Below, piece after piece: positions 8,312-44,549 of a stretch of 64,000 nucleotides of DNA. The notes under the pieces were generated by a model, which worked only from the letters and a program-made list of their open reading frames with translations, searched no databases and was not told where the DNA came from. This stretch comes from Acidobacteriaceae bacterium. Its GTDB lineage: Bacteria; Acidobacteriota; Terriglobia; Terriglobales; Acidobacteriaceae. The position numbers were made by a program, and so were the translations under genes. The DNA lies in NCBI GenBank assembly GCA_003131315.1, contig PKUV01000160.1:59804-123803 (forward strand), written 5' to 3'. How positions within the stretch are numbered: position 1 is the first letter of the stretch; each line of letters begins with the position of its first letter.

Positions 8312-11300
8312 TCAGAAACTCAGCTTTAATGCGAGTTGTCCGACACGAGACGCTACCGATGTGCTCGTGATCTTGCCGAATGCCGGCACCCCGTCGCTGA
8401 AACTTGTATCTGGATTCCCGAATTGCGTGCTGTTGAATGCGTTGAAGAACTCGGCCCGGAACTCAAGAGCCATCCGCTCGGTTAATGCCGTCGTCTTCCT
8501 TAAAGAGAGATCAACGTTATGCTGAGATGGTCCGCGAAGCAGTCCTGGCCTGGTATTGCCAAAGCCCGTTCCTCCGTCTGAGCTGATCGCCGGCGGACCG
8601 GTAAAACAGTTGGTATTGAAATACTCGTTTAGGCGGCTTTTCACGGAGCCTCCTATGCTGAGACTTCCGTTGCAACCGGGCGCGCTGAGATCAAGATTGG
8701 CAAAGTCGCTCGACGTACCGAAAAGATTGTTCGAGTTGGTATTGAGGAATGTCAGCGGCGTTCCGGACTGGATAGTAACTACCGTGGACATGGCCCAGCC
8801 ACTGGAGATTTTTCCCGCAAAACCGGATCCGTGATTGAAACTGGGCAATTCATAAATAGCGCTCACGATCAAGCGCTGCGGACGGCTGAAATTGGCTTCT
8901 CCATAACCTGCATAGAGATTGTTCTGATCTCCGATGGTGCCGCCTCCGAAGGTGCTCCCCACGACGTTCGCTGCCCCGGTTGAGAGCGCCTTCGACCACG
9001 TGTACGCCCCGAGAAATTGCAATCCGTGGCTGAGATGTTTTTTCAGCGTGACTTCCAAGGCGTTGAAGTTTGAACGTCCCTCCGAGCCCTGTTCCTGGAA
9101 GCCGGCTGGATCCCAGCCTTGGTAGGGAACCCTCAGAGCGAGATTCGACAACGTACTGGTGGTTTCCCCGCGGATCGGGTTCTGGGGAGTAGCTAGACCC
9201 GCTTGGTTGATGGAGCGCGAGTAGATTAGATGGTTGGCATTCGATCCGACATAACCAATTTGTAGCGCCAAGGTTGGACTAATTGCAGTTTGCACATTGA
9301 CTACATACTGCTGGGTTATGGCAGGACGGATCGTCAACTGGGTGGCGATGGAGCTCAGATCGCTATTGGGTGTATAGGGATCGAAGAACGGAAATTGACT
9401 GAGCGGCGGGATGGGTTCCTGGAAGGGATGGGCCCATGAGGCGCTACCATTGAAAGGCGGAAAGAAGACGCCAATCAGTGCCCAAGGCAAGCCAGGTATG
9501 GACTGAAACTGGCTGTTGCCGGTCACCGCCGAATAGTAGATCCCATATCCGCCTCGCACCACTACGCGGTCACTCTTAGGCAGCAAACTGTATGCAAATC
9601 CAAATCGTGGACCCCATGTATTGTTTCCGCTCCCGGGTACAAACCCGTTGATTCCGGATTTCACAACGCCGGCAGGGACCGGATTGGTCCAATTGGCCGG
9701 TACCACGTAGCCCGCCAAACTGCCCTCCGGCGGAGGATTGGGATTAATCAGTGCCGGGTTGATGTTTGTTGCTCGACCACTGAGATTGGTGAACGGCGGC
9801 AACCATTCCCAGCGCAAGCCGAGGTTCAGCGTCAACCTGGAGTTGACTCGCCAGTCGTCCTGACCATAGGCCGAAATTTCCCATGTCCGAGCGTGTCCAG
9901 CGAGCACGCCCAGCAATTCGAGGGAGTACAACACATTGCTGAAACCGTCTGGTGGAAAGCCGGGTATTCCGGCGGTCCCGTTTTGTGCGCCGTTCATTCC
10001 AAGGAGGAAGTCCGGCCAACTGGGGAAGTTGACCTGACCGTAATATTCTTCTCCGCTGTTCACCAGATAAGTCCTCGTGACACCGCCGCCGAAGCGAAGA
10101 CTGTGGCGGCCACGCACCCACGCTAGGTTATCCTCCAGGGTGAAAAGGTTCTGCGCATTAGGGGAATAGATACCAGCATTAAAGTTATCGGAACCCGCGA
10201 TCGTCACGGAAGGTTTGTTGTCGTTCTGCGCGGAACTGTTCACTCCAATCCCGGAGAGAGTAAACGGCGAATGGGGCGTGGTGAGCGAACTAATCCGGTC
10301 ATAGCCCAACCGAATCTGGTTGAAAAGGTTTCCCCGGAAGACGTAATTGTCGGTGAGCGAGGCCACCAGATAGTTCAGGTTATTCGTCGATGGAGCACCC
10401 GGTAGATTCCCGCCACCTGCAAATGGATTCGTGGTGTCACTAAGCGCGGTAAAAAATCGGCCTTGGAAGGTGTTTTTCGATGACTGTAGGAAATCGAAAT
10501 TGCCCATGTATTGGTTCTCGTTGAACGTTGCTGGCACACTGAGCGAGACCAAGTCTGTCGCCGGGTTTGCAGTCGGGAAGAGATATTGTCCGTTGGGCAA
10601 TTTCTCCTGCAGAAGAGTCAGCGCCACCGGGTTAATGTTCGATCCGTCCGCGGCAATGGCTGGTCCGAACCCAGGAGGGCCGAAAATGTATTGGAGTCCC
10701 TGCTGCCCTGCAAAAAGCGCCCCGAGCGAAGCGGCGGAACGATCATTGGTAGTGAGCGGGGAAAAGAATGTTTGGCGGCCCGATACTCCATTGATCTGAC
10801 GTGTGCCCTGATACGATCCGAAGAAAAGCAATTTGTCCTTGATAATCGGCCCGCCCAGCGTGCCTCCGAACTGGTTTTGCTTCAGTTCCGGGCGTGGCGC
10901 GCCGTTCTGATTGAGAAAAAAATCGTTCGCATTGAGCACATCGTTCCGCCAAAATTCGAACACGTTGCCATGGAAAGCGTTCGAGCCCGTTTTCGTGACC
11001 AGGTTGATATTTGCGCCGGCGTCCCGGCCATATTCCGCATCGTACATTCCCGTCTGGACTTTGAACTCCTGGATTGTGTCGGGATTGGGGATGGGCACTC
11101 CAAAAGCCGCCGCATCATAATCGTTGACGTCAACTCCATCCATTCGAAAATTGACGTCGCTCGCCCGGGCTCCGTTGACGTTTTGCCCTTGTCCCTCCGT
11201 AGTAGGAATCTGTCCTCCGCTTCCGCGGCCAAGTTCAGTCGCTTGCGTGACACTAGCCACAACCCCGGCCGAGAGAGTCATGATCTGTGTGAAATTGCGG

Positions 11301-18539: not shown

Positions 18540-19046
18540 GGGCCAGATCAACCTTCCCTGTGCTTAGGAATACTGGTTCATCTTTAGAGTCTCCAAAAAG
18601 CCAACCACACCTCCCGAATCTTGCTCGTCAGACGGCGACCTGGCTCCTTGGATTTCGCGCTCAATTACGAACTGCGCCATTGTTGCGTAGTGTATACCAA
18701 CTTTTGGCGAGGCTGGTCATGTCTGCACAGCGAGAAGTCGGAGCTGAAACAACGCTATCGACACGCAACCGGACTCCTTCGACGTGGTGTGGTTCGCATC
18801 TGAGATTGTGACGACCGTGAAACTGCTCCAGGAATAAGCGGAGTTCAGGCTCCTCGATGCGAGATATATTCACGTTGTCTCAGGCGTGTTTACGCCCGTG
18901 CTCGCGAAACACTCGAAGTCGTTCTCGCTCATCGACTGCATCTCGGTCGGCGTTGATCGAATGCAGCGAAACTTCGAGCCGATGCGAAAGCAGGTAGAGG
19001 CCTGGCAGAGAAGTGACCTGACGGACGTCACCGCCAAGGTGGTCAT

Positions 19047-19352
19047 CTACGAGGCATTTATCGAGGGCAGGAAGTCAGCGAGTCCTGCCCTGTATAGGTC
19101 ATTCGCGAGATTGACGGCAAGTTGGCTTTGCTCGACCGATTCGGACAGTCGGTCGCGGCGTTCTTGTTCCTGCGAGTAGTTCACCAGAGAGTCCTGGACA
19201 TCTTCCAGAGCCTTGAGGATTACCGAGCGGTATGTAATCACCGCCTGCCGCTCCCGCGATGTTTGCACCGCGACGTTGGAACGAATTCGTCCGGCGGTAA
19301 ACACGGGCAGGCTGATTCCTGGACCAGCCGAAAAGAAATTGCCCAGCCCTAG
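19047..19352 (-). pseudogene. NodT/TolC-family outer-membrane efflux protein fragment
   Basis: GLGNFFSAGPGISLPVFTAGRIRSNVAVQTSRERQAVITYRSVILKALEDVQDSLVNYSQEQERRDRLSESVEQSQLAVNLANDLYRAGLADFLP. Only ~100 aa of a ~470-aa family are present. Confidence 0.7.
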
Positions 19353-19354
19353 GG

Positions 19355-19582
19355 TCAGATCGTGAAGTTGAGTGGCTTGGCGAACGCATGCGTTTTCACC
19401 AGTTCATCGCGCAATTGCCGCCCCGTGTAATGGACAAACACATCGTCCAAATTAGTGTTCTGCACTGTAAGTGTCTTCAGTCCCACCCCCGCCACCATCG
19501 CCATCTCCACCAGATCCCTCGTCGTGCCTGACCTATTCGCGTCAGCAACCGGAATGTCCCCACGCTCTCGTTCTGCACGCAA
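19355..19582 (-). pseudogene. ABC-transporter ATPase C-terminal fragment
   Basis: LTVQNTNLDDVFVHYTGRQLRDE is the typical C-terminal tail of ABC-2/DrrA-like ATPases. There are no Walker motifs. Confidence 0.6.
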
Positions 19583-19669
19583 CCGATGGACCTCCCCTGT
19601 ACCGCCAGCGCCGACCTCCGCAACGATGCAGTAGTTCGTTCAGGGTACCCGGCCGGCAGGCTCCGCCGG

Positions 19670-21232
19670 CTACCCTGTTTGGAACACAGTGTCGAGCACC
19701 GTGCCATCCACCCACTTCACCACCGCCACCGGACGATCCCCCAACTTCGGCCGGGCCGGCTTGCCGCCGCAAATCTTCTCCACTTCTGCCTTGATGTCCT
19801 GAATGGGCCTAATCGACAGGCTTGATCCCTTCACCACATCCAGCAAGTCCGGGCGATTGGGATTGATCGAAATCCCTCGCTCCGTGACCACCACGTCAAT
19901 CATCTCCCCCGGGCCTGTCAGCGTGGTTACTTCATCCACAATCACGGGAATGCGGTTGCGAAACGAAGGCAACGCCAGGATCGTGCAGCCTGCTTCCAGG
20001 CAGTTCTGCCAACCGCCAATGCCGTGCATCAGTCGCCCATCTGAGTGTGTGACCACATTAGCGTTGAAGTTCACGTCCACTTCTGTAGCGCCCAACACCA
20101 CGGCATCCACCAGAGAAGCAAAGGAGCCTTTGCCGTGATAGTTGTATGACGTAAACGGCGAGGTCGCCACGTGCCGCGGATCATTCCCAATCGACTTCAC
20201 TCCATCGAGATCAATTGTCTGGCCATCGAGAATATAGTCGGTCAAGCCTTCCTGCAAGAGATCCACCAGATATTTCGTTGATCCGCCACGCACGAAGCGC
20301 GCCTTAACGCCATCTTCCTTCATCATGCGCCGCAGATAATCAACGAATGCAAGCGAAATCCCTCCTGCGCCGGCCTGGAACGAAAAGCCATTGCGCATAA
20401 TTCCGGATTCCCGCAGGAACCGCGCTACAAACTCTGCAATGCGCAATCGGTCGGGAGCGCGTGTGATCTGCGTCGTTCCCGAGACGATCTTCGCCGGATT
20501 GCCGATAGACTCGACTTCCACCACGCAATCCACATTGTTGCCCTGGATCTGCCATGGAATACACGGAAAAGGCACGAGCGTGTCAGTCACCACGATTACG
20601 GCGTCGGCATAAATGGAATCCGCTAAAGCAAACCCCAGCGACCCGCAAGCCGACTTCCCATGCGAGCCATCGGCATTGCCGAACGCGTCTGCCATGGGTG
20701 CAGCGATTACCGCAATATCAATATGAACTTCACCATCTTGCACCGCCTGCCAGCGCCCCCCATGAGAACGCAGTACGCCCATCCCACGCATTTTCCCCTG
20801 TGTGCAGTAATCGCCCAGGGGGCCGTTCATGGAACCTTCAATGTGATGAATCACGCCCTTTTCCATGAGTTCAATTGCGCCCTGTTGGGACGGAAACGAC
20901 GCGCTGGGAAACCACATCAAGTCCTTCACTCCGACTTTTTCTGCAGCGGCGAGCGCCATGAGCGCGACGCGGTCACCGTCACGCAGATGATGGTGGTTCG
21001 AGATGACCATCCCATCGCGCAGCCCACATTTGCGCAATGCGGTCTCAATGTCCACAACTCGTTTGTCACCATTTTGGGGATAGTCCTTGTTCGAGCGCAC
21101 CAGCGGGGCAGCCTTGCGCCCGCGGGGCTGATATTTGCCCACGCCAAGATAAGGAATCTGCGGCTTGCCATTCACCATGGTGGGAACCATCCGTCCCGCC
21201 GCGTTCTGCACCATATCGATTCGATCACTCAT
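19670..21232 (-). CDS. citF: citrate lyase alpha-subunit-like CoA-transferase (CitF family)
   Basis: 520 aa. N-terminus reads ...AGRMVPTMVNGKPQIPYLG...VVDIETALRKCGLRDGMVISNHHHLRDGD. Both length and motifs are typical of CitF. Confidence 0.8.
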   Translation of the reverse strand: MSDRIDMVQNAAGRMVPTMVNGKPQIPYLGVGKYQPRGRKAAPLVRSNKDYPQNGDKRVVDIETALRKCGLRDGMVISNHHHLRDGDRVALMALAAAEKVGVKDLMWFPSASFPSQQGAIELMEKGVIHHIEGSMNGPLGDYCTQGKMRGMGVLRSHGGRWQAVQDGEVHIDIAVIAAPMADAFGNADGSHGKSACGSLGFALADSIYADAVIVVTDTLVPFPCIPWQIQGNNVDCVVEVESIGNPAKIVSGTTQITRAPDRLRIAEFVARFLRESGIMRNGFSFQAGAGGISLAFVDYLRRMMKEDGVKARFVRGGSTKYLVDLLQEGLTDYILDGQTIDLDGVKSIGNDPRHVATSPFTSYNYHGKGSFASLVDAVVLGATEVDVNFNANVVTHSDGRLMHGIGGWQNCLEAGCTILALPSFRNRIPVIVDEVTTLTGPGEMIDVVVTERGISINPNRPDLLDVVKGSSLSIRPIQDIKAEVEKICGGKPARPKLGDRPVAVVKWVDGTVLDTVFQTG

Positions 21233-21544
21233 TCATTTTCCCTAAGTTTCTCCGATGGCACGTGGGAACTGGCACCTCGCCCGTGCAGTCGAGTCAAGAT
21301 CACCCCACTGGACTACAATTTCCCCACCGTAGTCATTTCTCCACCCGTTTGCGACGCTCCCTCCAATACCCGCGAGCTTTCATGATCTCTGCCTGCGTGG
21401 GGGTAAAACACCCCCATGAATTACCCAAATCTGTTCGAGATGAATGCGCCCGCGCCCTCAAATCCCATGACACGGGAATTTTTTTCCCTCGCTGGATGTC
21501 CGCCACATCGCCCGAGACCGACGGCGGAGCAAAGCTAAGCCGGT

Positions 21545-22201
21545 TTACTTCAGCCGAGATTGGTGCATTTCACTACACTCGGGGACCCTTCCCAGTCGGT
21601 GCATGGTGTCAACAATCATTTCCACAACTTGGTCGTCACCTATTGTGGTGTTGACCATCAGGTGGTAAAGGACGCGAGTAGGCCAGTCCGATCGGAAATA
21701 ATATTTCACGAAGGCCATCCTTTCGCGATCAACGATGTCAATTAATTGCCTCGCTTCCGTTTCATTTCTTCCATCTGCAACGATGCGGCGGACTTTTTCC
21801 AAGTGTGGAGCATAAAGAAAGATATGAAACGTGTCGCTTCGGTGCCTTAAGAAGTATGGCGCACCGCGGCCAACTATGACGCTATTGCCCTCTTCGGCCA
21901 CTTTCAGCGCAAGCCTTTCCATCAGGGATACCATGCAGTCGGCATCGAATATCTGAGACTCGGCAAGTGAAGTGCCACGTTCATGACTCCCCCGAAAAAA
22001 CATTTTGGCGAGGCGGTACAATCGGCCATCCAGTTTTTCATCACGGCTGTCCACGACTGCACAGTCAACCTGAGCCATCTTCGCTATTTCTTGACTCAAC
22101 AGATGATCCCAGAGCTTCCAGCCCAACCGAGCAGCTAACTTCCTCGCAATAGCCCCGCCGCCGCAGCCGTATTCGCGTTCTATAGTGATGACCCTAAACA
22201 C
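21545..22201 (-). CDS. cytidylate-kinase-like family (P-loop) protein
   Basis: VFRVITIEREYGCGGGAIARKLAARLGW. AGGAGGGG lies 8 nt upstream of the GTG at 22201. The ORF track starts at 22231. Confidence 0.7.
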   Translation of the reverse strand: MFRVITIEREYGCGGGAIARKLAARLGWKLWDHLLSQEIAKMAQVDCAVVDSRDEKLDGRLYRLAKMFFRGSHERGTSLAESQIFDADCMVSLMERLALKVAEEGNSVIVGRGAPYFLRHRSDTFHIFLYAPHLEKVRRIVADGRNETEARQLIDIVDRERMAFVKYYFRSDWPTRVLYHLMVNTTIGDDQVVEMIVDTMHRLGRVPECSEMHQSRLK

Positions 22202-22232
22202 AGTTGTGGCCCCTCCTGAGAACTGCGTCACT

Positions 22233-22298
22233 GTTCGTACATCAAAATAGTGCAGAAGCAGAAAGGTTCGTACATCAAAATAGTGCAGAAGCAGAAAG
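22233..22298. repeat. perfect 33-bp tandem duplication (2 copies)
   Basis: GTTCGTACATCAAAATAGTGCAGAAGCAGAAAG occurs at 22233-22265 and again at 22266-22298, just upstream of the cytidylate-kinase-like gene. Confidence 0.95.
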
Positions 22299-22542
22299 GC
22301 CGCTCAGTTCAGTGGGTTTGAAAACCCTCTCCCAAGCCGCACCCGCATTGGGGCCGACCGCCCGACCTTGCCCTTTTTGGGTCACTGACGTCCTCGGCAG
22401 CTCCTAGCATCGTAAATTTGATTTTCTACCCGTTCATCCTGACTGATGGAAGCGAGTGTTGTGACTCTGTCAACCGCAAAGCGCCTTCCTTGTCGGGGGA
22501 ATGCAATTACATGGCTGTCGCAACGCGGTTAGTGTAGACCGT

Positions 22543-22572
22543 TTGTCAACTGTTTGACAACTACGACAGTTG
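22543..22572. promoter_or_regulatory. nested inverted repeats (candidate operator)
   Basis: TTGTCAA-CTGT-TTGACAA lies at 22543-22560. It overlaps CAACTGT (22547-22553) ... ACAGTTG (22566-22572). TGTTTG occurs three times nearby. Confidence 0.45.
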
Positions 22573-22766
22573 TTTGTATGCTGTGTCGGCGTCGAATCAG
22601 TGTAGGCAACGCTGCAGATTTCTACGCCAAACGACTGGATCGGCAAGAACCGCTCGCAACGCTTAAGTTGCGCTGCGGAGCGCCGAACGGGTATTTTGCG
22701 ATCGCGAAGCAAGATGGCGTTCGGCTGTGTGTCGCGCAGATCGCTCCTGTGGTTAGTTCGTTCTTT

Positions 22767-23588
22767 ATGAAGGGCTCTCCCCGCAAAACGGCAATCTCGT
22801 GGGTCGAATCGGATCGTATTCTGCTGCGAGGGTATCCGATCGATGCGCTCGTGGGAAATGTATCGTGGGCAGCAGCAGTTTACCTTGCGCTGGTCGGGGA
22901 AATACCGAATCCACGGATAGCGCGGCTTCTGGAGGGCATTCTGGTCTCAGTCATCGATCATGGCCCAACCCCCGCATCCACTCTCGCAGCGTGTACAGTG
23001 GCTAGCACCGGGTCGCCGTTAGCTAGTTCTGTGGCAGCCGGGCTCCTTGCGATAGCGAAGTCTCACGGCGGGGCAATTGAAGATTGCATGAGCGTGCTGG
23101 AGCGTTGTGTGGGCCTGAAACAAGATCCGGCTACGGCCGCTGCCAAAGTGGCACGCGAGTACCGGGAACAGGCGATTAGGGTTCCCGGGTTTGGTCATCG
23201 GCAACATTCGGCGGATCCTCGTAGTATCCGATTGCTCGACCTGGCTCGCGAGCTCGATTTGTTCGGAAACTATGTCGCCCATGCACAAGCCATGGAGGAT
23301 GTTCTGTCTAGAATTGCAGGCAAGCGATTACCGCTCAATGCAGACGGAGCGATAGCTGCTCTGCTCTGCGAGATTGCATTCCCGAAAACAGCCGCGAACG
23401 GAATCTTTATGATCGCCAGGATTCCGGGCTTGGTAGCGCACTGCCTTGAAGAGCAGGCGCGTAACCTTCCGCTGCGCGCCATCGATCCGGCTGCCTATGA
23501 ATATGATGGCCCCCCCGAGCGCAGTCTCGGTGGACAGAAGCACACACCAGAAAATGCGGTCGGAGAGTCCAAGGGAATGCAACCGTGA
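22767..23588 (+). CDS. citrate-synthase-family protein, short citryl-CoA-lyase-like form
   Basis: 273 aa. ILLRGYPIDALVG...VIDHGPTPAS...VPGFGHRQHSADPR...IARIPGLVAHCLEEQ. The start at MKGSPRK was chosen over the longer 22554 frame. Confidence 0.75.
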   Translation: MKGSPRKTAISWVESDRILLRGYPIDALVGNVSWAAAVYLALVGEIPNPRIARLLEGILVSVIDHGPTPASTLAACTVASTGSPLASSVAAGLLAIAKSHGGAIEDCMSVLERCVGLKQDPATAAAKVAREYREQAIRVPGFGHRQHSADPRSIRLLDLARELDLFGNYVAHAQAMEDVLSRIAGKRLPLNADGAIAALLCEIAFPKTAANGIFMIARIPGLVAHCLEEQARNLPLRAIDPAAYEYDGPPERSLGGQKHTPENAVGESKGMQP

Positions 23589-25036
23589 GTCGCTTCGACC
23601 TGGTCATAAAAAACGGCACTCTGGTGATCCCATACACCGGCCTGGTACAAGCAGATGTTGGCGTTAAAGATGGGCGCATTGCAGCGATAGGAGAAAGCAT
23701 AGCCGCAAATGAGGCGGAGACGCTCGTTCAAGCTCGCGGCAAGATGGTGTTTCCGGGCGCGGTGGATTCCCACTATCACGTCGGCATCTACCGCCCATTT
23801 TCAAAGGACGCGGAATCCGAATCTCGATCTTCTTTGGTTGGTGGCGTCACCACGCTTCTCAGCTATTTCAGAACCGGCCACCACTACCTCGATAAGTCCG
23901 GTCCATATCGCGAAATTTTTCCACAAGTGCTCGAACTCTCTGAAGGGCACTTCTATACGGACTATGGATTTCATCTGGCGATCATGACTGCGGAGCAGTT
24001 GCTCGAGGTCGATGATCTCATCGATACATTTGGCGTCGGCTCTTTTAAGTTTTACATGTTCTACAAAGGCTTGAATTTATCCGCGGACTCGACGCGCGGA
24101 AACGATTACACCATGGCCGACAATTACGATCTTGGCCACCTCTACTTGCTCATGGAGAGAGTTTCCGCCGCTTCCCGTAAGCACGCGGACAAGGGGAGGA
24201 TTGCGCTTAGTCTTCATTGCGAAAATCCTGAATTAATCCGCGTTTTTATTGAAAGAGTCAAACGGGAGGGTAGGCGAGGGCTGGAAGCCTACAGCGAAGC
24301 GCGCCCTCCGTTGAGTGAGCGCTTATCCATTGTGGAGGCGGTATTGCTAGCCGAGGCTACGAGATGCCCGATCAATCTCCTGCACCTGAGCAGCAGGCAG
24401 GCACTCGAAGCTGGCATCAGGTCGCGCCGGGAACATCCCGAGCTCGACATTGTCTTGGAAACTACACTTCATCACCTAACTCTGACCTGCGAAACCGCAG
24501 GCGGCATGATCGGTAAAGTTAATCCCCCGATTCGGGGGCAAGAGGATATCAATTATTTATGGGAAGGTATTGCCAACGGGGAAATCGATACTGTGGTCAG
24601 CGATCACGCGTGTTGCATGGAAGAAGATAAACGAGAAGACGATCTGTGGGGCTCGCTGCCCGGCTTTGGTGGATCGTCTCTCCTGTATCCGACGCTGATC
24701 TCCGAGGGATTCCATAAGCGCAATGTCCCTCTTACGCGCATCAGCGAAATCGCTTCGGCCAACCCGGCCCGCCATTTTGGATTATTTCCTCGCAAAGGAA
24801 CGTTGGCGGTGGGCGCCGACGCCGACTTTGCAGTCATTGATCTGCACCAGACTCAGGCGGTGAATGCTGATTTGCTGCAGTCAGCACAGGATTTCACGCC
24901 GTTTGCCGGAATAAAGATCAAAGGCTGGCCAACGGAAACCATATTGCGGGGTGAAATAATGATGAAGGATGCGAAAGTTACGGCGAAACCCCGCGGACGG
25001 TACCTTCGCCGCCCTATCGAACTGCACAAGGGCTAG
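23585..25036 (+). CDS. cyclic amidohydrolase (D-hydantoinase/dihydropyrimidinase/allantoinase-like)
   Basis: GAVDSHYHVG (HxH), SFKFYMFYKG (carbamylated-Lys context), LHCEN, LLHLSS and VSDHACC. The GTGA start/stop overlaps the previous gene. Confidence 0.85.
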   Translation: MSRFDLVIKNGTLVIPYTGLVQADVGVKDGRIAAIGESIAANEAETLVQARGKMVFPGAVDSHYHVGIYRPFSKDAESESRSSLVGGVTTLLSYFRTGHHYLDKSGPYREIFPQVLELSEGHFYTDYGFHLAIMTAEQLLEVDDLIDTFGVGSFKFYMFYKGLNLSADSTRGNDYTMADNYDLGHLYLLMERVSAASRKHADKGRIALSLHCENPELIRVFIERVKREGRRGLEAYSEARPPLSERLSIVEAVLLAEATRCPINLLHLSSRQALEAGIRSRREHPELDIVLETTLHHLTLTCETAGGMIGKVNPPIRGQEDINYLWEGIANGEIDTVVSDHACCMEEDKREDDLWGSLPGFGGSSLLYPTLISEGFHKRNVPLTRISEIASANPARHFGLFPRKGTLAVGADADFAVIDLHQTQAVNADLLQSAQDFTPFAGIKIKGWPTETILRGEIMMKDAKVTAKPRGRYLRRPIELHKG

Positions 25037-25087: not shown

Positions 25088-25163
25088 TTGACAAAGGGCG
25101 CCTCTCCCATGAAAATCAGCACCTAGTGACAAGTGTTTGAAACAGAAAACAGTGGAAAACAGT
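25088..25163 (+). promoter_or_regulatory. candidate promoter and operator of duplicated module A
   Basis: TTGACA (25088-25093), then 17 nt, then GAAAAT (25111-25116). Next come the palindrome TGTTTgAAACA (25134-25144) and GAAAACAGT twice (25145, 25155). Confidence 0.35.
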
Positions 25164-25229
25164 CTAGGCACCAGGAAATCCAGAGGTATTTGGACAACAG
25201 AGATGTCTTCACGAGTACAGGGGGATCCA

Positions 25230-26660
25230 ATGGCAGGCGAAAAGATAACCGCGATTGAAGCCACGTATGTGATGGTGCCAGACAACGGTTCGCAGACGAT
25301 ACTGCGCGACAAGACGGTAGTGGTGGAAGGGGACCGGATCAAGGAAGTGAGCGATCACTACGACGGTCCCGTGGATCGCCGGATCAAAGCGGAGGGCCGC
25401 CTGCTCTCTCCCGGTTTCATTAATTGTCATACACATGTGGGGTGCGCCACGTACTCACGTGGGATGGCCGAGGATCGCGACCTGGTCGAAGGCAGTGCCT
25501 TCTACCATTATTTCGTCCCGTTGCTGACAATTGGCTATAAGCATTTCACGCCTGACGAAATGTCGGCTCTCCTGGAATGGGACATTCTGGAGATGATCAA
25601 GAAGGGTTCTACCACAATTCTGGAAGAGAATTTTGGTGGTTACGACAGCGTCATCGAAATTGTGAACCGACTGGGGAACCGAGCCTACATTAGCTACAGC
25701 TATCCCAACCAAGTCAGCAAGATCGGCTACCTCAAAGACGGTAAGCTGTGCTATGACAAGCCGGATCCGATTGAGGTGGGCAAGGGTCTGAGACGGGGCC
25801 TGGAAATGTATGACAAATACAATGGGTCTGCTTCGGATCGAATCCGCGTGCGACTGAGTCCCACGGGTCCGGACACGTGTCCCCCAGAGGTCTTGAGGGA
25901 CACGCGAAAAGCCGCTGACCGACTCGGTTGTGGCATCAGTATCCACGCCGCACACCATTCCACTGAGGTGAATTTTTGCAGGAACGTCTTCAATGCCAGT
26001 CCGATCGAGCATTTGGCGAATACGGGCATTTTAGGTCCGGATACGATCATTACTCACGTTACCTACACTGACGAAAAAGACCGAAACCTGCTCGCAGCGT
26101 CGAATTCCACTGTAGTCCACTGTTCCTACCGTAAGGCGCGCGAGGCAGTCATCAGCCCCTATCATGAGTACGTTGAGAAAGGGATCAACGTCGCGCTCGG
26201 GACAGACTCTTTTTCGAGTGATATCACCGAGACCATCAAAATGGCCGGGGTACTGGGCAAGATCCGCATGGAGCGTGTTGGAGTCCCCACGGCCGTGGAA
26301 GTCATGGGCTCGGCTACATTGTCGGGGGCAAAAGGGTTGGGCCGCGATGATATCGGTCAAATCAAGGCTGGCGCGAAAGCCGATATGGTGCTGATCGACC
26401 TCACTAAGACCCACAACTTTCCTGTGATAGAGCCAATCAAGAACTTTGTCTACTATTCCTTCGGCACCGACGTGGAGACCGTCATGATCAACGGCAAAAT
26501 CGTCATCGAAAACGGCATCGCACTGACCACCGACGAGTCGGCACTTCGCAAGCGAGTGCAGGCAGCCGCGGACCGCATTTGGGCGATTGCTGCCCGCGAA
26601 GGGGCGCTGCCGGGTGTTTCGTTTGTCCCGAGTAAGAAAACAGAGCCGGTGACCGTATAG
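25230..26660 (+). CDS. Amidohydro_1 deaminase/chlorohydrolase-like amidohydrolase (module A)
   Basis: GFINCHTHVG (HxH), ISIHAAHH and ALGTDS. It resembles the cytosine/guanine/MTA-deaminase and TrzA/AtzA group, and is roughly 60% identical by eye to 32221-33660. Confidence 0.85.
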   Translation: MAGEKITAIEATYVMVPDNGSQTILRDKTVVVEGDRIKEVSDHYDGPVDRRIKAEGRLLSPGFINCHTHVGCATYSRGMAEDRDLVEGSAFYHYFVPLLTIGYKHFTPDEMSALLEWDILEMIKKGSTTILEENFGGYDSVIEIVNRLGNRAYISYSYPNQVSKIGYLKDGKLCYDKPDPIEVGKGLRRGLEMYDKYNGSASDRIRVRLSPTGPDTCPPEVLRDTRKAADRLGCGISIHAAHHSTEVNFCRNVFNASPIEHLANTGILGPDTIITHVTYTDEKDRNLLAASNSTVVHCSYRKAREAVISPYHEYVEKGINVALGTDSFSSDITETIKMAGVLGKIRMERVGVPTAVEVMGSATLSGAKGLGRDDIGQIKAGAKADMVLIDLTKTHNFPVIEPIKNFVYYSFGTDVETVMINGKIVIENGIALTTDESALRKRVQAAADRIWAIAAREGALPGVSFVPSKKTEPVTV

Positions 26661-26690
26661 ATCGAGAGTCTGGGCAGGAAGGATGAAAAG

Positions 26691-27863
26691 ATGCCGTATG
26701 AGCGGCTTGTGATCAGGCCGGAGAAATGGAAGGCTTCCAACAACGAGGCAACCTCGCCAGCCGTCAGAGCGGGTGACCTTTTATTTGTCGCAGCCCAACA
26801 TTCGATCGAAGGAAATGTACGCGAGCAGGCCCGCGTTGCGCTGGAACGCATACGCGAGATAGTAACCGCAGCGGGTGGCACGATGGACGACGTTGTGGAT
26901 GTCGTAGCTTTCTTTCTTGACATCCGAGATGCGGAAGACGTGCTTGAGGTCAGCCGCGAGTTTTTCTCCAAAGACTATCCGGCCTGGACTTTTATGGGAA
27001 CTCAGGGTCTTCCCCAGCGCGGGTCAGCCGTACATATTCATGCGGTAGCTCATCTCGGGAAGGCCAAGAAACAGTGCTTTACGCCAGACAGTCTTCGATG
27101 GTGGCATAAGTACCCCATGTCCGGTGCCTGCCGCAAGGGCGAGTACCTTTTTATATCGGGGCAAATGGCGGCCGACTTGGATGGCAACATTACGAACCCT
27201 GGCGATCATGCAGCGCAATCCCGCTACATCTTCCATCGGCTCGAAGAGCTGGCCGAACTCGCGGGTGGAAACTTTCGAAGCGATGTTCTCGATCTCCTTT
27301 CTTTCAGTATCGACCCCCGCAGCTTCAATCCCATGTGCATCGACGTCGGATGCAAGGAATTCCTCACCATGCCGTTGTCGCAGGCTCCGTCATGGTCGGT
27401 GATTGGCAGCACCGGATTGTTTAAGCACCTCGCCTTCCATACTGTGAGGGCCATTTGCGAGATTGGAAATGGCAAGGCCGTCGCTTTTACGCCCAGCAGT
27501 ATTTTTTGGAAATATTTGCCTGTCTCCGGGGCCACCAAGAAAGAGCACGGCCATCTGTTGTGCATCGCCGGCGAAGTGGGAATGGACATGGATGGCCAGA
27601 TCGTCTCTCCTGGAAATCCAGCAGCACAAGGTCGCTACGCGTTTAACCGAATCAAAGAGGTAGTGGAGATGGCAGGCGGCACAATGTCCAATATCGTGGA
27701 CATTATCTCCTTTCACAAGGATGTCCGTGCCATACCCACAATTCAGGAAGTCTCGAAGGAATTCTTCAAGGGGCAGCCGCCCGCTTGGACTGCTGTTGGC
27801 TATCCAGGGGGATATTTCGAGGGGCACCTACACGAGATCTGTGCGAGAGCCTGGCTGCCATAA
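26691..27863 (+). CDS. triple RidA/YjgF-domain fusion protein (module A)
   Basis: 390 aa, made of 3 x ~130-aa repeats. Each has RidA-like blocks (AGDLLFVAAQ / KGEYLFISGQ / GHLLCIAGE; ...AGGTMDDVVDVVAF / AGGNFRSDVLDLLSF / AGGTMSNIVDIISF). PAWT/PSWS/PAWT replace the canonical PAR. Confidence 0.8.
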   Translation: MPYERLVIRPEKWKASNNEATSPAVRAGDLLFVAAQHSIEGNVREQARVALERIREIVTAAGGTMDDVVDVVAFFLDIRDAEDVLEVSREFFSKDYPAWTFMGTQGLPQRGSAVHIHAVAHLGKAKKQCFTPDSLRWWHKYPMSGACRKGEYLFISGQMAADLDGNITNPGDHAAQSRYIFHRLEELAELAGGNFRSDVLDLLSFSIDPRSFNPMCIDVGCKEFLTMPLSQAPSWSVIGSTGLFKHLAFHTVRAICEIGNGKAVAFTPSSIFWKYLPVSGATKKEHGHLLCIAGEVGMDMDGQIVSPGNPAAQGRYAFNRIKEVVEMAGGTMSNIVDIISFHKDVRAIPTIQEVSKEFFKGQPPAWTAVGYPGGYFEGHLHEICARAWLP

Positions 27864-27912
27864 AGCAGGATCGCGGCGGCAGGATTATTTGGGTTCATAA
27901 CGGGAGCGGGAA

Positions 27913-28797
27913 ATGTCTGATACCAACTACAAAGCGGTAGATATTTCTATTAATGCGTTTCTGCCTGAGAGTTCCTACAAACATCTGTCACTCGGCTTGT
28001 GGAAGGCGTCCGGGCCATCGTACGAAGAGAAAATCCGCAAAGGCTGGACCGCCGAGTACATGGTTGAGATGATGGACCGAGGAAACGTGGAGTTGTCTTG
28101 CCTGATTTCATTGTGCTCGGCGAACGGCGTAGGCGGGGAGGAATTGATCGTCCCTATTGAAGAAATCATTCCAGTCATCCAGAAATATCCCAAGCGGTTC
28201 GTCGGGCTGGTGGGACTTTCGCCACTGCAGAAATGGGGAAGTCCTTACTATCCACCCACCTACATTGAACGTGCGGTGAAGGAACACGGCTTCAAAGGGG
28301 TACACATGTATCCCCACTGGTTCGGAATCAGGGTTAACGATCGGCGCATGTATCCCATTTATGAGAAGTGTGCGGAGCTTGATGTCCCTATTTCATTCCA
28401 GACCGGACAAGGGACGATGCGTTCGAATTCGCGAGTCGTGGCCCGTCCAATTTGGATCGACGAAATTGTGCGGGATTTTCCGACGCTGAAAGTGATTGCG
28501 CTGCACAGCGGATATCCGTGGGAAGACGAGTTAGTTGCGCTCGCGATCACGAATGAGCACGTCTACATTTGTCCTGACGTTCCGCCACCACGACTGTGGC
28601 ATGCGTCCATATTGTCCTACTTGAAAGAAGAAGGGCGTTTCGAGGGCATGAGTGGAAGCGACAAGGTCTTGTGGGCTACTGACTTCCCGTTACAAGAGCC
28701 CGACAAATCCTTGAAAGAGGTGGATGCGCTCGGATTGACTCCGGAAATTCGTCGGAAACTGGTGCGAGACAATGCAATAAAGCTGTTCAAGCTGTAA
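27913..28797 (+). CDS. Amidohydro_2 (ACMSD/LigI-like TIM-barrel) protein (module A)
   Basis: HMYPHWFG, ALHSGYPWEDE and LWATDFP. The N-terminal site reads VDISIN instead of D-x-H-x-H. Confidence 0.8.
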   Translation: MSDTNYKAVDISINAFLPESSYKHLSLGLWKASGPSYEEKIRKGWTAEYMVEMMDRGNVELSCLISLCSANGVGGEELIVPIEEIIPVIQKYPKRFVGLVGLSPLQKWGSPYYPPTYIERAVKEHGFKGVHMYPHWFGIRVNDRRMYPIYEKCAELDVPISFQTGQGTMRSNSRVVARPIWIDEIVRDFPTLKVIALHSGYPWEDELVALAITNEHVYICPDVPPPRLWHASILSYLKEEGRFEGMSGSDKVLWATDFPLQEPDKSLKEVDALGLTPEIRRKLVRDNAIKLFKL

Positions 28798-28845
28798 GAG
28801 TTGACGAGCCCGCGGCAAGGTGATGGGAGAACGTCGGGAGAGGCA

Positions 28846-29727
28846 ATGATTCAGGCGATAGATGTTTGTGTTAATCCGTTTTTCCCGGAATTCAGCGGCA
28901 AGTATGCCCGCTTGGGGTATTGGAATTTCCTCGGTGGCAACATGCTGCGTAGAGCCAAAAACGGCTGGACAGTCGAGGAACTTCTCCGTTCGATGAACGA
29001 GGCGAAGGTGGAAATGGCGGGATTGGTTGCCTTTTGCGCTGCAAGCCCAAGCAATGGAGCCGACTGTTTTATCCCGGCAGAGAAGCTAAAACCGATTCTT
29101 GATTCCCATCCGCAACGTTTTTTCGGCCTAGTTGGGGTTAACCCTCTCGCCCCAATTCAAGACGACTATTACGCTCCGCGGTATCTTGAGCGCGCAGTGA
29201 AGGAGTTTGGCTTTAAGGCCGCCCATCTTGCCTTACACTGGTTTGGCATGCAGCCAAATGACAAGCGCCTGTATCCGATTTATGAGAAGTGCCTGGAGCT
29301 GGGCGTGCCTGTCGTGATGCCGCTCGGGGCTGCGCCTCCACGCTCCGGGGCGCGCAACGTGGCGGAACCGCATTTGCTTGATCCGGTCATCGGTGATTTT
29401 CTGGAACTAAGTATCGTCGGACAATCCATTGGATATCCGTGGGAGCGGGAATCGGTCTATCTAGCGCGGAATAATGCCAACTTCAGTGTGCTAGCCGATT
29501 CGCCAGCCCCCGAGCACTGGATTGCAGATTTTGTCGGGTTCATCAAACAAGGACGCTTTCCCAAGCATGATGCCGGAAGCGATCAAGTGATGTGGGGGTC
29601 AGGGTTCCCCTTTAAGGATCCCGCTCAATCTCGCAGTCAATTTGATGCGATCGCGTTCACAGACGTCATTGCCTCTCAGCTACTTCGGGAAAATGCACTA
29701 CGGATTTTCAAACTTGGCATTCGCTAA
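28846..29727 (+). CDS. Amidohydro_2 protein, divergent paralog (module A only)
   Basis: IDVCVNPFFPEF, HLALHWFG, IGYPWERE and MWGSGFP. GGGAGAGG lies upstream of the ATG at 28846. Confidence 0.8.
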   Translation: MIQAIDVCVNPFFPEFSGKYARLGYWNFLGGNMLRRAKNGWTVEELLRSMNEAKVEMAGLVAFCAASPSNGADCFIPAEKLKPILDSHPQRFFGLVGVNPLAPIQDDYYAPRYLERAVKEFGFKAAHLALHWFGMQPNDKRLYPIYEKCLELGVPVVMPLGAAPPRSGARNVAEPHLLDPVIGDFLELSIVGQSIGYPWERESVYLARNNANFSVLADSPAPEHWIADFVGFIKQGRFPKHDAGSDQVMWGSGFPFKDPAQSRSQFDAIAFTDVIASQLLRENALRIFKLGIR

Positions 29728-29743
29728 GGGATAGGCTCGCTCT

Positions 29744-30985
29744 ATGGCACCCAGTATGCGTGGCTGGAAACTTCTTCTGTTGTTGTGCCTGACCAATGTC
29801 ATGGCTTACATCGGAGTCTTTGAGTTGCCTCCGATTATTGGCAATCTGGTTCACGAATTCCATATCAGTTATGCGCAAGCGGGCTTGTTTATGAGCGTTT
29901 ACGCATTGGTGCGCATGATTGGCAGTCTGATGGCGGGGACGTTCAGCGACCGGTATGGTGTAAAGTACTTTATCCTCGCGGGGCTCGTGCTGATTGCGCT
30001 GGGCGGATTTCTTTGCGCTCATAGCCACGGATACGCGTCCATGTTGGCTTATCGCACAATCATCGGTATCGGTGCGACTTTGATTTTCATCCCCGGCCTG
30101 GCGGCGGCAATGTATCTGGTCCCGCCACATCAGGTCAATCTTGCAACCGGAACGTATTTCACGTCCATGAACCTGGGCCTGACTGTCGCCCTCCTGGTCA
30201 CTCCCATCATGGCCTCGTCGTTTACCTGGCGTACTCCACTCAATCTTTTTGCCGGTCTTAGCATACTCGTGGCACTTGTGTTCTTTGTCGTAACTCGCGG
30301 GCAAACTCTGCAGGCATCAGGCGACCTCCAGGTGACAGGACGGAATAGTGAGCGTGCAGCCGGTACGTACTCGATTCGGAATGTGCCTCTTGTCCTGGTT
30401 TGCATCGGCTATTTTCTGATGTTATTTCACACTTACGGGATGATTACGTGGCTGCCGGAATATTTGAAAGTCGCCCGAGGTTACTCCCCTGCTGTGGTGG
30501 GAGCGGTATCAATGCTACTCGGACTCGTCATGATACCTGGGACCTTTATTTCAGGATGGCTGGGAGACCGCATTGGAGCCTGGGGAATTGGCATGATTGG
30601 CGTGGTTCTTTGCGGCGGCTGTCCGGCGGCATTTATTTTATTCCCAAGAATCCCGCTGTGGGGTGTTTTTGCTGGAGTATGTTTCCTGGCATTCGGCATT
30701 TGTTTATTTGTTGTGCCTCTCACTAGCATTCTCAGTTACCTTGTGCCAGCCAAGGACAACGGAAAGGCGGTTGGCCTGGTCCATACCACAGGATATGCGG
30801 GCTCGATTGCATCCACTTATCTTGGCGGTTACCTGCTTACCCTCACCGGGAATTATTCGTGGCCGTTTGCGTTATATGTCGGTTCAATGGTTGTCAGTCT
30901 TTTTCTGCTGTTAGCGATGCACCGATACTATGCCGAGGCCGAAACGGGTCGACGTGCGCCTGCGGTTGAGGCCCAACCCGCGTAG
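29744..30985 (+). CDS. MFS transporter (module A)
   Basis: 413 aa with ~12 hydrophobic segments and a GTFSDRYG loop 2-3 motif. Confidence 0.85.
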   Translation: MAPSMRGWKLLLLLCLTNVMAYIGVFELPPIIGNLVHEFHISYAQAGLFMSVYALVRMIGSLMAGTFSDRYGVKYFILAGLVLIALGGFLCAHSHGYASMLAYRTIIGIGATLIFIPGLAAAMYLVPPHQVNLATGTYFTSMNLGLTVALLVTPIMASSFTWRTPLNLFAGLSILVALVFFVVTRGQTLQASGDLQVTGRNSERAAGTYSIRNVPLVLVCIGYFLMLFHTYGMITWLPEYLKVARGYSPAVVGAVSMLLGLVMIPGTFISGWLGDRIGAWGIGMIGVVLCGGCPAAFILFPRIPLWGVFAGVCFLAFGICLFVVPLTSILSYLVPAKDNGKAVGLVHTTGYAGSIASTYLGGYLLTLTGNYSWPFALYVGSMVVSLFLLLAMHRYYAEAETGRRAPAVEAQPA

Positions 30986-41230: not shown

Positions 41231-42484
41231 ATGACAAAAACCGTGGACACGAATAGTCCTCGAAAACCACTTGAAGGTTTGCGTGTCCTCGAAATGGGAC
41301 AACTGCTTGCAGGCCCTTTTGCTTCGGTCTTGCTGGCGTGGTTTGGGGCAGAAGTAATCAAGATTGAACCGCCGGTTGAAGGTGATCCTTTGCGCACATG
41401 GCGCAGCCTGTACAAGGGCACCTCATTGTGGTGGTACATACTCGGACGAAACAAAAAGTCGGTGACAGTGAATCTCCGAACGCCCGAGGGGCAGTCGATC
41501 GTGCGCCGCCTGGTCGATAAGGTCGATGTGGTGCTCGAGAACTTCAAGCCCGGTACGATGGAGAAATGGGGCTTGGGATATGAGGAACTGAAGAAGATCA
41601 ACCCTCGGATCATCATGGCGCGGGTCTCCGGTTGGGGGCAAGATGGTCCATACAGCGCCAAACCTGGCTTTGCCTCAGTAGCGGAAGCAGTAGGTGGTTT
41701 GCGCTTTGTCACCGGATATCCGGATGGTCCACCCGTCCGTCCCAATCTTAGTCTCGGGGATACTCTCGCGGGCTTGCACGCTGCGCTCGGCATTCTCGTG
41801 GCGGTCTACCATAGAGACGTGGTAGGGAGCGGGGTGGGACAAGTGGTAGACGTTGCACTCTACGAATCTGTCTTCAATGTAATGGAGGGAATTGTCCCCG
41901 ACTTCGACAAATTAGGCATCGTCCGCCAGCGCGAGGGCAACCGACTGTCGGGGATAGTGCCCACTGGTACTTGGCGGTGCAGTGACGATAAGTACGTAGT
42001 TATCGGCGGCAATGGCGACAGCATCTTCAGGCGTCTCATGTTGGCGATCGGACGACCTGACCTGGCTGACGATCCTACGTTGGAACGCAACAGTGGACGG
42101 GTTCAACATGCTGAATTGATTGATGACGCGATCTCGGCCTGGACGCGTCAACACTCTCTGCAAGAGGTCATTAATACTCTAGAAAAGGCCGAAGTTCCAG
42201 TCGGGCCAATCTACTCGGTCTCGGAAATGATCGAGGATCCGCACTTCATCGCGCGCGGACTCTTTGAGACCCACACACTGCCCGACGGTACTACGGTGAA
42301 ACTTCCAGCCCTTGCTCCGAAACTTACTGAAACGCCCGGGAAAACACAGTGGATCGGGCCAGAACTCGGGGCGCACAACGCCGAAATCCTGGGCACGTTG
42401 TTGGGCATTTCAGGAGAAGAATTGCGCCGGTTGGTGCAGCAAGGCGTGGTCGGGTCGACGAGAAGTACGGCCGACGTCTCGTGA
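41231..42484 (+). CDS. family III CoA-transferase (CaiB/BaiF/Frc type)
   Basis: LEGLRVLEMGQLLAGPFASVLLAWFGAEVIKIEPP... 417 aa. Confidence 0.85.
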   Translation: MTKTVDTNSPRKPLEGLRVLEMGQLLAGPFASVLLAWFGAEVIKIEPPVEGDPLRTWRSLYKGTSLWWYILGRNKKSVTVNLRTPEGQSIVRRLVDKVDVVLENFKPGTMEKWGLGYEELKKINPRIIMARVSGWGQDGPYSAKPGFASVAEAVGGLRFVTGYPDGPPVRPNLSLGDTLAGLHAALGILVAVYHRDVVGSGVGQVVDVALYESVFNVMEGIVPDFDKLGIVRQREGNRLSGIVPTGTWRCSDDKYVVIGGNGDSIFRRLMLAIGRPDLADDPTLERNSGRVQHAELIDDAISAWTRQHSLQEVINTLEKAEVPVGPIYSVSEMIEDPHFIARGLFETHTLPDGTTVKLPALAPKLTETPGKTQWIGPELGAHNAEILGTLLGISGEELRRLVQQGVVGSTRSTADVS

Positions 42485-43446: not shown

Positions 43447-43610
43447 TCTCACACCATCCCATTCTGCAATCGGTTGCTTTAAAGTGCCCAACGCGGCTAA
43501 TCATATACGAATAGCCGCCTGTTTCGCTACGCAGTCAAAAGTTGTTTCAGAATCGGAGGCTCGGACGTCGGGACCGAGCTTGAGAATCAGTTGAGGTGGA
43601 AAGAGCAACA

Positions 43611-44549
43611 ATGTCGCTTACCCAAATCCATGTGGTAGAGGTCGGACCACGCGACGGATTTCAGATGGAAGCAACCTTTATACCGACTGACCTCAAGGTT
43701 GAAGTCATAGATTTACTGGGAAGAGCCGGTATAGAGAAAATTGAGGCCACGTCATTTGTGAGTCCGAAATTGATTCCTCAAATGCGGGATGCCGACGAAG
43801 TAATGTCCCGCATTCGACGCTTTCCCGGGATTCGACATACAGCGCTGGTGCCAAATGTCAAAGGCGCACAGCGTGCAATTGAAGCAGGCGCAGAGGCCGT
43901 GCGGGTGGTGATCTGCCTCAGCGAGAGCTACAACCGCCGCAATGTGGGCCTGGGGATATCTGAATCTCTGGAGAACTGTCGGCGCATCTGCGAAATGACC
44001 AAAAACCACGACATTGGCTGCGAAGCGATTCTTGCACTGGCCTTCGGCTGCCCACTGGAGGGCGTTATTTCCGAAGAAAGAGTCGTTGGGATCGCAAATC
44101 AACTGATAGGCATGGGCTTTGGCGAACTCTCAATCGCCGACTCAATTGGAGTCGCAAACCCTGCACACGTGAGGCGCCTGATAAGAAAGCTAGCGAAGGA
44201 AGCTGCTCTGGCCCATTACTCTTTGCATTTCCACAACACCCGTGGGTTGGGGCTGGCAAATGTCCTCGCGGGAATTGAGGAAGGCGTGGATACCTTTGAT
44301 TCTTCATGCGGGGGACTCGGAGGCTGTCCTGTGGTCCCGGGTGGTAGCGGCAACATACCCACGGAAGATCTGGTTAACATGCTGGAAGAAATGGGGATCA
44401 GCACAGGGGTTGAGCTGGCGCTGGTCATGACGGCGGCAAATAAGCTTCAGCAATTTCTTCGCCGTCCTTTAGCCAGCTATGTACTGGCGTCGGGAACGCG
44501 CAAGCAACTATTCGAAGGCGCTGCGGCGGGACCTCCGGCGCCGGCTTGA
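43611..44549 (+). CDS. HMG-CoA-lyase-like (HMGL/DRE-TIM) acyl-CoA lyase
   Basis: EVGPRDGFQME, SFVSPKLIPQM, HFHNTRGLGLAN and GLGGCPVVPGGSGNIPTEDL. Confidence 0.85.
   Translation: MSLTQIHVVEVGPRDGFQMEATFIPTDLKVEVIDLLGRAGIEKIEATSFVSPKLIPQMRDADEVMSRIRRFPGIRHTALVPNVKGAQRAIEAGAEAVRVVICLSESYNRRNVGLGISESLENCRRICEMTKNHDIGCEAILALAFGCPLEGVISEERVVGIANQLIGMGFGELSIADSIGVANPAHVRRLIRKLAKEAALAHYSLHFHNTRGLGLANVLAGIEEGVDTFDSSCGGLGGCPVVPGGSGNIPTEDLVNMLEEMGISTGVELALVMTAANKLQQFLRRPLASYVLASGTRKQLFEGAAAGPPAPA

Follow-up and report, generated by a model that had tools for sequence, protein, structure and literature searches.

The subject of this report is a 64-kb stretch of DNA from a soil acidobacterium (the window), which lies on contig C125 of a 6.0-Mb genome that is 99.7% complete, and in particular a paralog of the citrate lyase alpha subunit (CitF) that is encoded close to a citryl-CoA lyase (CCL) at positions 19670-23588. 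Searches of the open reading frames (ORFs) against Pfam and NCBIfam profiles identified three genes in this interval, namely CitF, a Cytidylate_kin2-family gene (CK2), and CCL. CK2 precedes CitF on their common strand at a distance of 312 bp, and both are transcribed away from the operon that starts with CCL:

19670..21232, minus strand: CitF paralog of 520 amino acids, a class II CoA-transferase of the citrate lyase alpha-subunit family (PF04223)
21545..22231, minus strand: CK2, a P-loop protein of the Cytidylate_kin2 family, 228 amino acids (PF13189, 133 bits)
22232..22766, no strand: divergent control region of 535 bp that separates the CCL operon from the CK2-CitF unit, read from the sequence
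22547..22572, no strand: candidate operator, the inverted repeat CAACTGT-TTGACA-N6-ACAGTTG, which overlaps a -35 box and is conserved across loci
22767..23588, plus strand: CCL, a short citrate-synthase-family protein of 273 amino acids, encoded by the gene with which the catabolic operon opens (NF004869, structure 6HXP)
23585..25036, plus strand: cyclic amidohydrolase (HYD), hydantoinase-, allantoinase-, or dihydropyrimidinase-like (Amidohydro_1 and NCBIfam allantoinase and dihydropyrimidinase matches, all under their cut-offs)

In a preliminary description, an orphan CitF was placed next to a citryl-CoA-lyase-type gene across a regulatory region, and the two were proposed to act together on free CoA thioesters. 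The 273-amino-acid CCL is real, but CK2 stands between the two genes, and the control region separates CK2, rather than CitF, from CCL. As set out below, we see about an even chance that this CitF, a copy of the alpha subunit of Terriglobales citrate lyase, was recruited to the locus and supplies citryl-CoA to the neighbouring CCL.

The assignment of the short protein to the citryl-CoA lyase type, which had been made without database searches, is borne out by the profile NF004869 ('citryl-CoA lyase'), against which it scores 244.1 bits, over the curated cut-off of 212. It also matches the structure of the Hydrogenobacter thermophilus citryl-CoA lyase (6HXP, E=8.6e-56, residues 15-255), while its PF00285 match spans profile positions 148-351 of 357 and so covers the C-terminal catalytic part of citrate synthase only, as is characteristic of CCLs, whose length is about 260-275 amino acids. 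The ATG start is backed by orthologs of 273 amino acids. In citrate synthase, the catalytic His, His, and Asp are found in HGGA, GHR, and N-x-D motifs. The corresponding residues of CCL (H100-G-G-A, G-F-G-H144-R, and N191-A-D193, in the motifs HGGA, GFGHR, and NADGA) align with 6HXP, and the three motifs are invariant or nearly so across 24 CCL homologs. By profile, structural match, and motifs, the window protein is a bona fide CCL-type protein, and since it carries the catalytic His/His/Asp motifs, it would require an acyl-CoA substrate. A SucCD-like citryl-CoA synthetase (CCS) was found neither in the window nor in the genome, where the best matches are SucC and SucD themselves at 30-37% identity.

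That the CitF homolog is full-length was confirmed as well, as PF04223 is matched end to end (417.6 bits), though the protein remains under the TIGR01584 equivalog cut-off (465.3 versus 501.45 bits). Among solved proteins it comes closest to 2HJ0 and 1XR4 (E<=1e-102), two CitF structures from structural genomics. A second CitF is encoded on contig C83 of the same genome and shares 86% protein and 78% DNA identity with the window copy, the DNA similarity being confined to the coding sequence. The best database match is P0001 (92%) and the next one examined is P0003 (88%), both of which lie within a PrpD-aconitase-IsoDH-CitD::CitE-CitF module. In a maximum-likelihood tree, the window CitF, the CitF of locus L035, and P0001 form a clade (100/98 support), which is nested in a Terriglobales clade that excludes the genus's own orthologs, and the C83 copy groups with those orthologs. 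These groupings place the window CitF as a descendant of a CitDE-linked CitF of another Terriglobales lineage. A recent duplication of the C83 gene within the genome is ruled out by the 78% DNA identity restricted to the coding sequence together with the tree placement. The ratio of nonsynonymous to synonymous substitution rates (dN/dS) of the window CitF lies at 0.035-0.059 against every relative (dS 0.86-1.5), the same range as among CitDE-linked copies. For the window and L035 copies it is 0.05 at dS=0.86, and the CCL-linked CitF has therefore been kept under strong constraint.

The CCL operon was detected in two of the 61 genomes of the genus, the source genome and G052, and relatives of the locus were collected from further genomes and metagenomes. 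Important to note here is that the taxonomic labels of metagenome-assembled genomes (MAGs) are used as deposited and that related genomes are not independent samples. The order CitF-CK2, divergent from CCL-HYD, was found again in L122, a metagenome contig of 97% DNA identity with an intact CitF (99% identity), and also in L123 (CitF 94%, CK2 77%, and CCL 92%). In L035, CitF is directly divergent from CCL (CitF 91%, CCL 89%). CitF and CCL are thus found together in three related loci, in addition to the Calditrichota discussed below, where the pairing occurs independently. A mosaic transfer of CitF, CCL, and HYD alone was considered and rejected, because the identity between the window and L035 is even across the operon (86-91%). 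Five further loci with CCL identities of 73-77% (L036, L039-L041, and L124) carry CK2 and no CitF beside CCL.

Common to these loci is the repeat in the control region. CAACTGT-TTGACA-N6-ACAGTTG was also found upstream of the operon in L122, L123, L035, L036, L039, L040, L041, L038 (which is G052), and L124, and a degenerate version precedes the first CCS gene (CCSA) in L037; in all versions of the operon the repeat precedes the first gene, be it CCL or CCSA. The control region also contains a promoter-like TTGACA-17-TATGCT at 22554-22582. In a promoter and terminator scan of 19300-22900, matches were no more numerous than expected by chance. Genes of the TetR, IclR, and GntR types are located near different versions of the operon. 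CK2 is divergent from CCL at the same position in L036, L039, L040, L041, L122, L123, and L124. Among the genes divergent from the CCL operon in Terriglobia, it is the one most regularly encountered, with 64-95% identity from locus to locus; no DNA-binding domain was recognised in it.

What occupies the place upstream of CCL in more distant versions of the operon is informative. In L037/L042 and L055 (CCL 57-61%) as well as in L097 (CCL about 50%), CCSA and CCSB immediately precede CCL-HYD on its own strand and overlap CCL. The presence of a CCS pair in the same operon slot shows that the window CCL most probably needs a CoA-activating partner, and it follows from the distant versions that the operon family ancestrally had a dedicated CoA-activating enzyme. 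Judged from gene order, CitF in the subclade of the window sits where this enzyme is missing.

The comparison was extended to other phyla by counting the arrangements at about 160 genomic and metagenomic CCL loci. CCS lies directly upstream of CCL in 84 of them, and a divergent CitF takes this position in 17. Fourteen of the latter are labelled Calditrichota or Caldisericaceae and have CitF divergent from TrmB-CCL-X178-IsoDH-PrpD, X178 being a protein of 178-185 amino acids without a Pfam or NCBIfam match. A search of five of the Calditrichota/Caldisericaceae genomes with this module yielded neither CitD nor CitE, and yet the CitF of Caldithrix, at 517 bits, exceeds the cut-off of the citF equivalog. 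In other phyla, CCL-X178-IsoDH-PrpD is accompanied by CCS (L134, L144, L167, L168, and L201). Moreover, the best matches in the source genome to X178, IsoDH, PrpD, and CitF of the Calditrichota module are all found within that of C83, at 42-54% identity. By gene content and similarity, this is one conserved module with three forms: CCS with CCL, CitF with CCL, and CitF with a CitD::CitE fusion. Such a pattern would be expected if CitF and CCL are a working pair of the citrate lyase type.

X178 follows CCL in most CCL loci of many phyla, be it with CCS or with CitF, and an X178-type protein opens the CitDE module of Terriglobales (copies at L078 10866-11402, L033 3349-3906, and C83:57450-57968 of the source genome). 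It looks like an accessory of citrate-cleavage modules. In seven loci of Pyrinomonadaceae/Blastocatellia (L048-L052, L059, and L071), CCL has genes of the hydantoinase-B/family III CoA-transferase types upstream of it, on the strand opposite to its own, and is followed 3-6 kb downstream by a CCS pair. The association of CCL with a hydantoinase/oxoprolinase-type gene is therefore widespread in Acidobacteriota.

The description of the window CitF as an orphan is correct for the window, as citD, citE, citC, citG, and citX are absent from its 64 kb, but not for the genome. On contig C83, a CitD::CitE fusion of 404 amino acids is followed by the second CitF (523 amino acids), in a module with the order unknown 185-amino-acid protein, PrpD-like, aconitase, IsoDH-like, CitD::CitE, and CitF (locus L005 2451-11447). 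A module of the same type was seen in L033 and L034 and is conserved in Terriglobales. The genome has no CitD/CitE apart from the fusion and yielded no citC, citG, or citX with the profiles TIGR00124, PF01874, and PF03802, so that the complete citCDEFXG set is represented elsewhere by CitD::CitE and CitF only. Throughout the 61 genomes of the genus, citX was not found at all and citG in two, both low-quality MAGs. All 24 sampled congeners, and G052 too, have only the CitDE-linked CitF copy (92-97% identical to that of C83), which lies beside CitD::CitE in about 20 of the 24. The CitF of G082 is no orphan, as its CitD::CitE lies 30 kb away after a rearrangement beside an IS200-type transposase. 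When the Terriglobales fusions are aligned to E. coli CitD at its prosthetic-group serine (Ser14), their RSD stands opposite SGD, and a serine occurs one column away, an ambiguous match. As the genus lacks CitX and nearly lacks CitG, its CitFs may already work with free CoA esters. In G085, a complete Acidobacteriaceae chromosome and the genome of L037/L042, a CitD::CitE fusion is present (C1:4157506-4157739) and CCS-CCL lies in the N-heterocycle operon; no CitF was detectable there.

From these arrangements, the following mechanism can be proposed. The (3S)-citryl-CoA on which CCL acts is also that of Si-citrate synthase. Acting as an acetyl-CoA:citrate CoA-transferase, CitF would form (3S)-citryl-CoA, or the corresponding ester of a closely similar acid, which CCL (EC 4.1.3.34 type) would split into acetyl-CoA and oxaloacetate, or a related 2-oxoacid. 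Acetyl-CoA would be regenerated and needed only catalytically, and the net conversion, in which citrate yields acetate and oxaloacetate, would require neither a carrier protein nor ATP. CitF would thereby take over the role that the CCS pair has in the distant operon versions. The definition of EC 2.8.3.10 itself uses free CoA esters (PMC8085960), and class II CoA-transferases work through a ternary complex, with no covalent enzyme intermediate (PMC9196870). Because the window CitF is close to CitDE-linked copies that lie beside aconitase and IsoDH, citrate itself is suggested as the acid, and an analogue is possible. What we infer, then, is the exchange of CoA thioesters between CitF and CCL, the identity of the acid, the joint transcription of CitF and the control region, and the reason for a citrate-type cleavage in an operon of N-heterocycle catabolism.

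Beyond the three genes, the surroundings of the locus contain the following features:

25137..30985, plus strand: rest of the first module, with a TRZ/ATZ-type aminohydrolase, a triple-Rid protein, two Amidohydro_2 proteins, and a major facilitator superfamily transporter (Pfam/NCBIfam)
41231..42484, plus strand: family III CoA-transferase, a complete gene in the same supercluster (PF02515, 403 bits)

As had been noticed before, CCL is translationally coupled to HYD, the TGA stop overlapping the GTG start in GTGA at 23585-23588, and this coupling was also found in G052, L035, L036, and L037, where the module at 25137-30985 is syntenic. The family III CoA-transferase probably has its partner in an HMGL-like lyase at 43596-44549 (PF00682, 144 bits), and it is 70% identical to the CoA_transf_3 protein of L037, a locus that has CCS as well. 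Just downstream of CitF lie two copies of a repeat of about 200 bp (18870-19070 and 19386-19578); the genome contains over 20 more, 86-92% identical, on at least 12 contigs, and the element resembles a miniature inverted-repeat transposable element.

Several observations weigh against a partnership of CitF and CCL. Since the genome retains CitD::CitE, the window CitF could be a mere second alpha subunit. It is 86-92% identical to CitDE-linked CitFs and shows no sign of a functional shift; no substitutions specific to CCL-linked copies were found, and the search for an adaptive signature gave only two shared departures, both of which also occur in the CitDE-linked P0001. The only other sampled congener with the operon, G052, is syntenic and has its sole CitF 1.56 Mb away. 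Had G052 alone been considered, the pairing would have been rejected, and it was the broader sampling that altered the picture. Four Terriglobia loci (L036 and L039-L041) have CK2 and no CitF beside CCL, and in G084, the genome of one of them, no CitF was found at all. The CitF of L035 (at about 9100-9160) contains two 1-nt insertions relative to the window and P0001, 43 nt apart and one of them in an A run, which reflect either an assembly error or recent decay. CK2 and 312 bp lie between CitF and the control region, and no promoter or terminator call decides on co-transcription. Finally, the supercluster that contains CCL also encodes the family III CoA-transferase. Much of this would also be accounted for by an extra alpha subunit, horizontally acquired or retained, that still serves the CitD::CitE of C83 and came to lie near CCL by historical accident in a rearranged region. 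This explanation, which we consider unlikely yet a serious contender, draws on the 86% identity to the C83 CitF, the position of the closest relatives (P0001 and P0003) beside CitD::CitE, the dN/dS shared with CitDE-linked copies, the repeat elements in the downstream flank, and the five loci, G052 included, that run the operon with no adjacent CitF. It does not, however, readily explain why the linkage to CCL is retained in four sequences whose divergence reaches dS of about 0.9 or why CitF occupies the slot in which relatives carry CCS. The Calditrichota pairing exists without CitD or CitE, and 24 congeners get by with a single CitF.

Alternatively, CCL could receive its CoA thioester from another source, for instance the supercluster's family III CoA-transferase (41231-42484) or a ligase encoded elsewhere, while CitF serves another pathway or has another acid as its substrate. 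CCL homologs of other bacteria often lie near family III transferases, and the loci with CK2 only, like G052, have neither CitF nor CCS beside CCL. On the other hand, L037 has a family III transferase beside an HMGL-like lyase plus CCS beside CCL; this suggests that the transferase is already paired with a lyase, and the window contains the transferase/HMGL pair as well. In addition, none of the roughly 160 tallied loci has a family III transferase adjacent to CCL, and we regard this alternative as improbable. A family III gene upstream of CCL in G052 was dismissed as the true partner because only a C-terminal fragment is present, with no counterpart in the source genome at E<1e-5. It is more improbable still, to the point of being hardly credible, that the window CitF is a decaying, non-functional remnant. 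It does show the most departures from columns that are at least 95% conserved among 122 Terriglobales CitFs (12, with a median of 3.5), the L035 copy has its two frameshifting insertions, and the flank is rearranged and rich in repeats. Yet the 520-amino-acid ORF is intact in both the window and L122, dN/dS stays at 0.035-0.059 over dS 0.9-1.5, and all 12 departures are conservative; the intact ORF and the low dN/dS exclude a pseudogene as the principal explanation. The proposal that CitF and CCL act on free CoA thioesters has consequently come through in part: the recurrent linkage, the CCS slot, and the Calditrichota module speak for it at the level of gene arrangement, while the CitD::CitE of the genome, the intervening CK2, and the five loci without an adjacent CitF speak against it.

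Taking the cooperation of CitF and CCL as the preferred interpretation, a broader picture can be drawn tentatively, to which we give slightly less than even chances. CitF with CCL would be a third way of splitting citrate, one in need of neither ATP nor a carrier protein, which arose more than once by the swapping of parts between two known systems. In Calditrichota, CitF with CCL would replace CCS or CitD::CitE within the conserved CCL-X178-IsoDH-PrpD module, and in a small Terriglobales clade a copy of a CitDE-linked CitF would have been captured next to CCL after the N-heterocycle operon lost CCS, in what looks like a recent event, and would since have been maintained by purifying selection. 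We found no published description of a CitF and CCL pairing, within an incomplete coverage of the literature. Genome surveys score citrate cleavage by three marker sets, which are ATP-citrate lyase, CCS/CCL, and CitDEF. If the interpretation is true, CitF with CCL would be a fourth route, free of ATP like CitDEF and without genes for an acyl carrier protein (ACP) or its prosthetic group, and it would be missed by such surveys of the reductive tricarboxylic acid (TCA) cycle, citrate fermentation, and acetyl-CoA supply. The locus would also offer a bacterial case in which CCS, CitD::CitE, and CitF occupy interchangeable slots of orthologous modules, and as the CitF is 86-92% identical to CitDE-linked copies, little or no change seems needed to serve a different lyase. 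It further raises the question of why an operon for N-heterocycle degradation begins with a citryl-CoA lyase.

Compared with the classical citrate lyase of E. coli and Klebsiella (CitDEF with CitC, CitX, and CitG; EC 4.1.3.6), the window locus has an alpha subunit of the same family and the same proposed net reaction via a (3S)-citryl thioester. In contrast to it, the locus lacks both the ACP (CitD) and the TIM-barrel lyase (CitE), and the genome yielded no citC, citG, or citX; the proposed partner is instead a CCL with the citrate synthase fold, and the proposed thiol carrier is free CoA. A reduced form of the classical system is known from Ignavibacterium album, where CitF is accompanied by a fused CitE-CitD (IALB_1146/1147, PMC3362086). 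The same two-gene form (CitD::CitE, then CitF) is found on C83 and in most Terriglobales. This form retains the ACP and CitE domains, whereas the window locus has CitF without them.

The closest likeness on the lyase side is the CCS/CCL system of Hydrogenobacter thermophilus, reportedly described by Aoshima et al. in 2004, which shares the CCL family (structure 6HXP) and is a two-enzyme route via free citryl-CoA. Orthologous operons of other Acidobacteriota have CCS-CCL at the position in question, whereas the genome studied here has no CCS. Activation would proceed by CoA transfer from acetyl-CoA rather than at the expense of ATP, and acetate would be released instead of net acetyl-CoA. The setting differs as well, being a catabolic operon for N-heterocycles here and the reductive TCA cycle in H. 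thermophilus.

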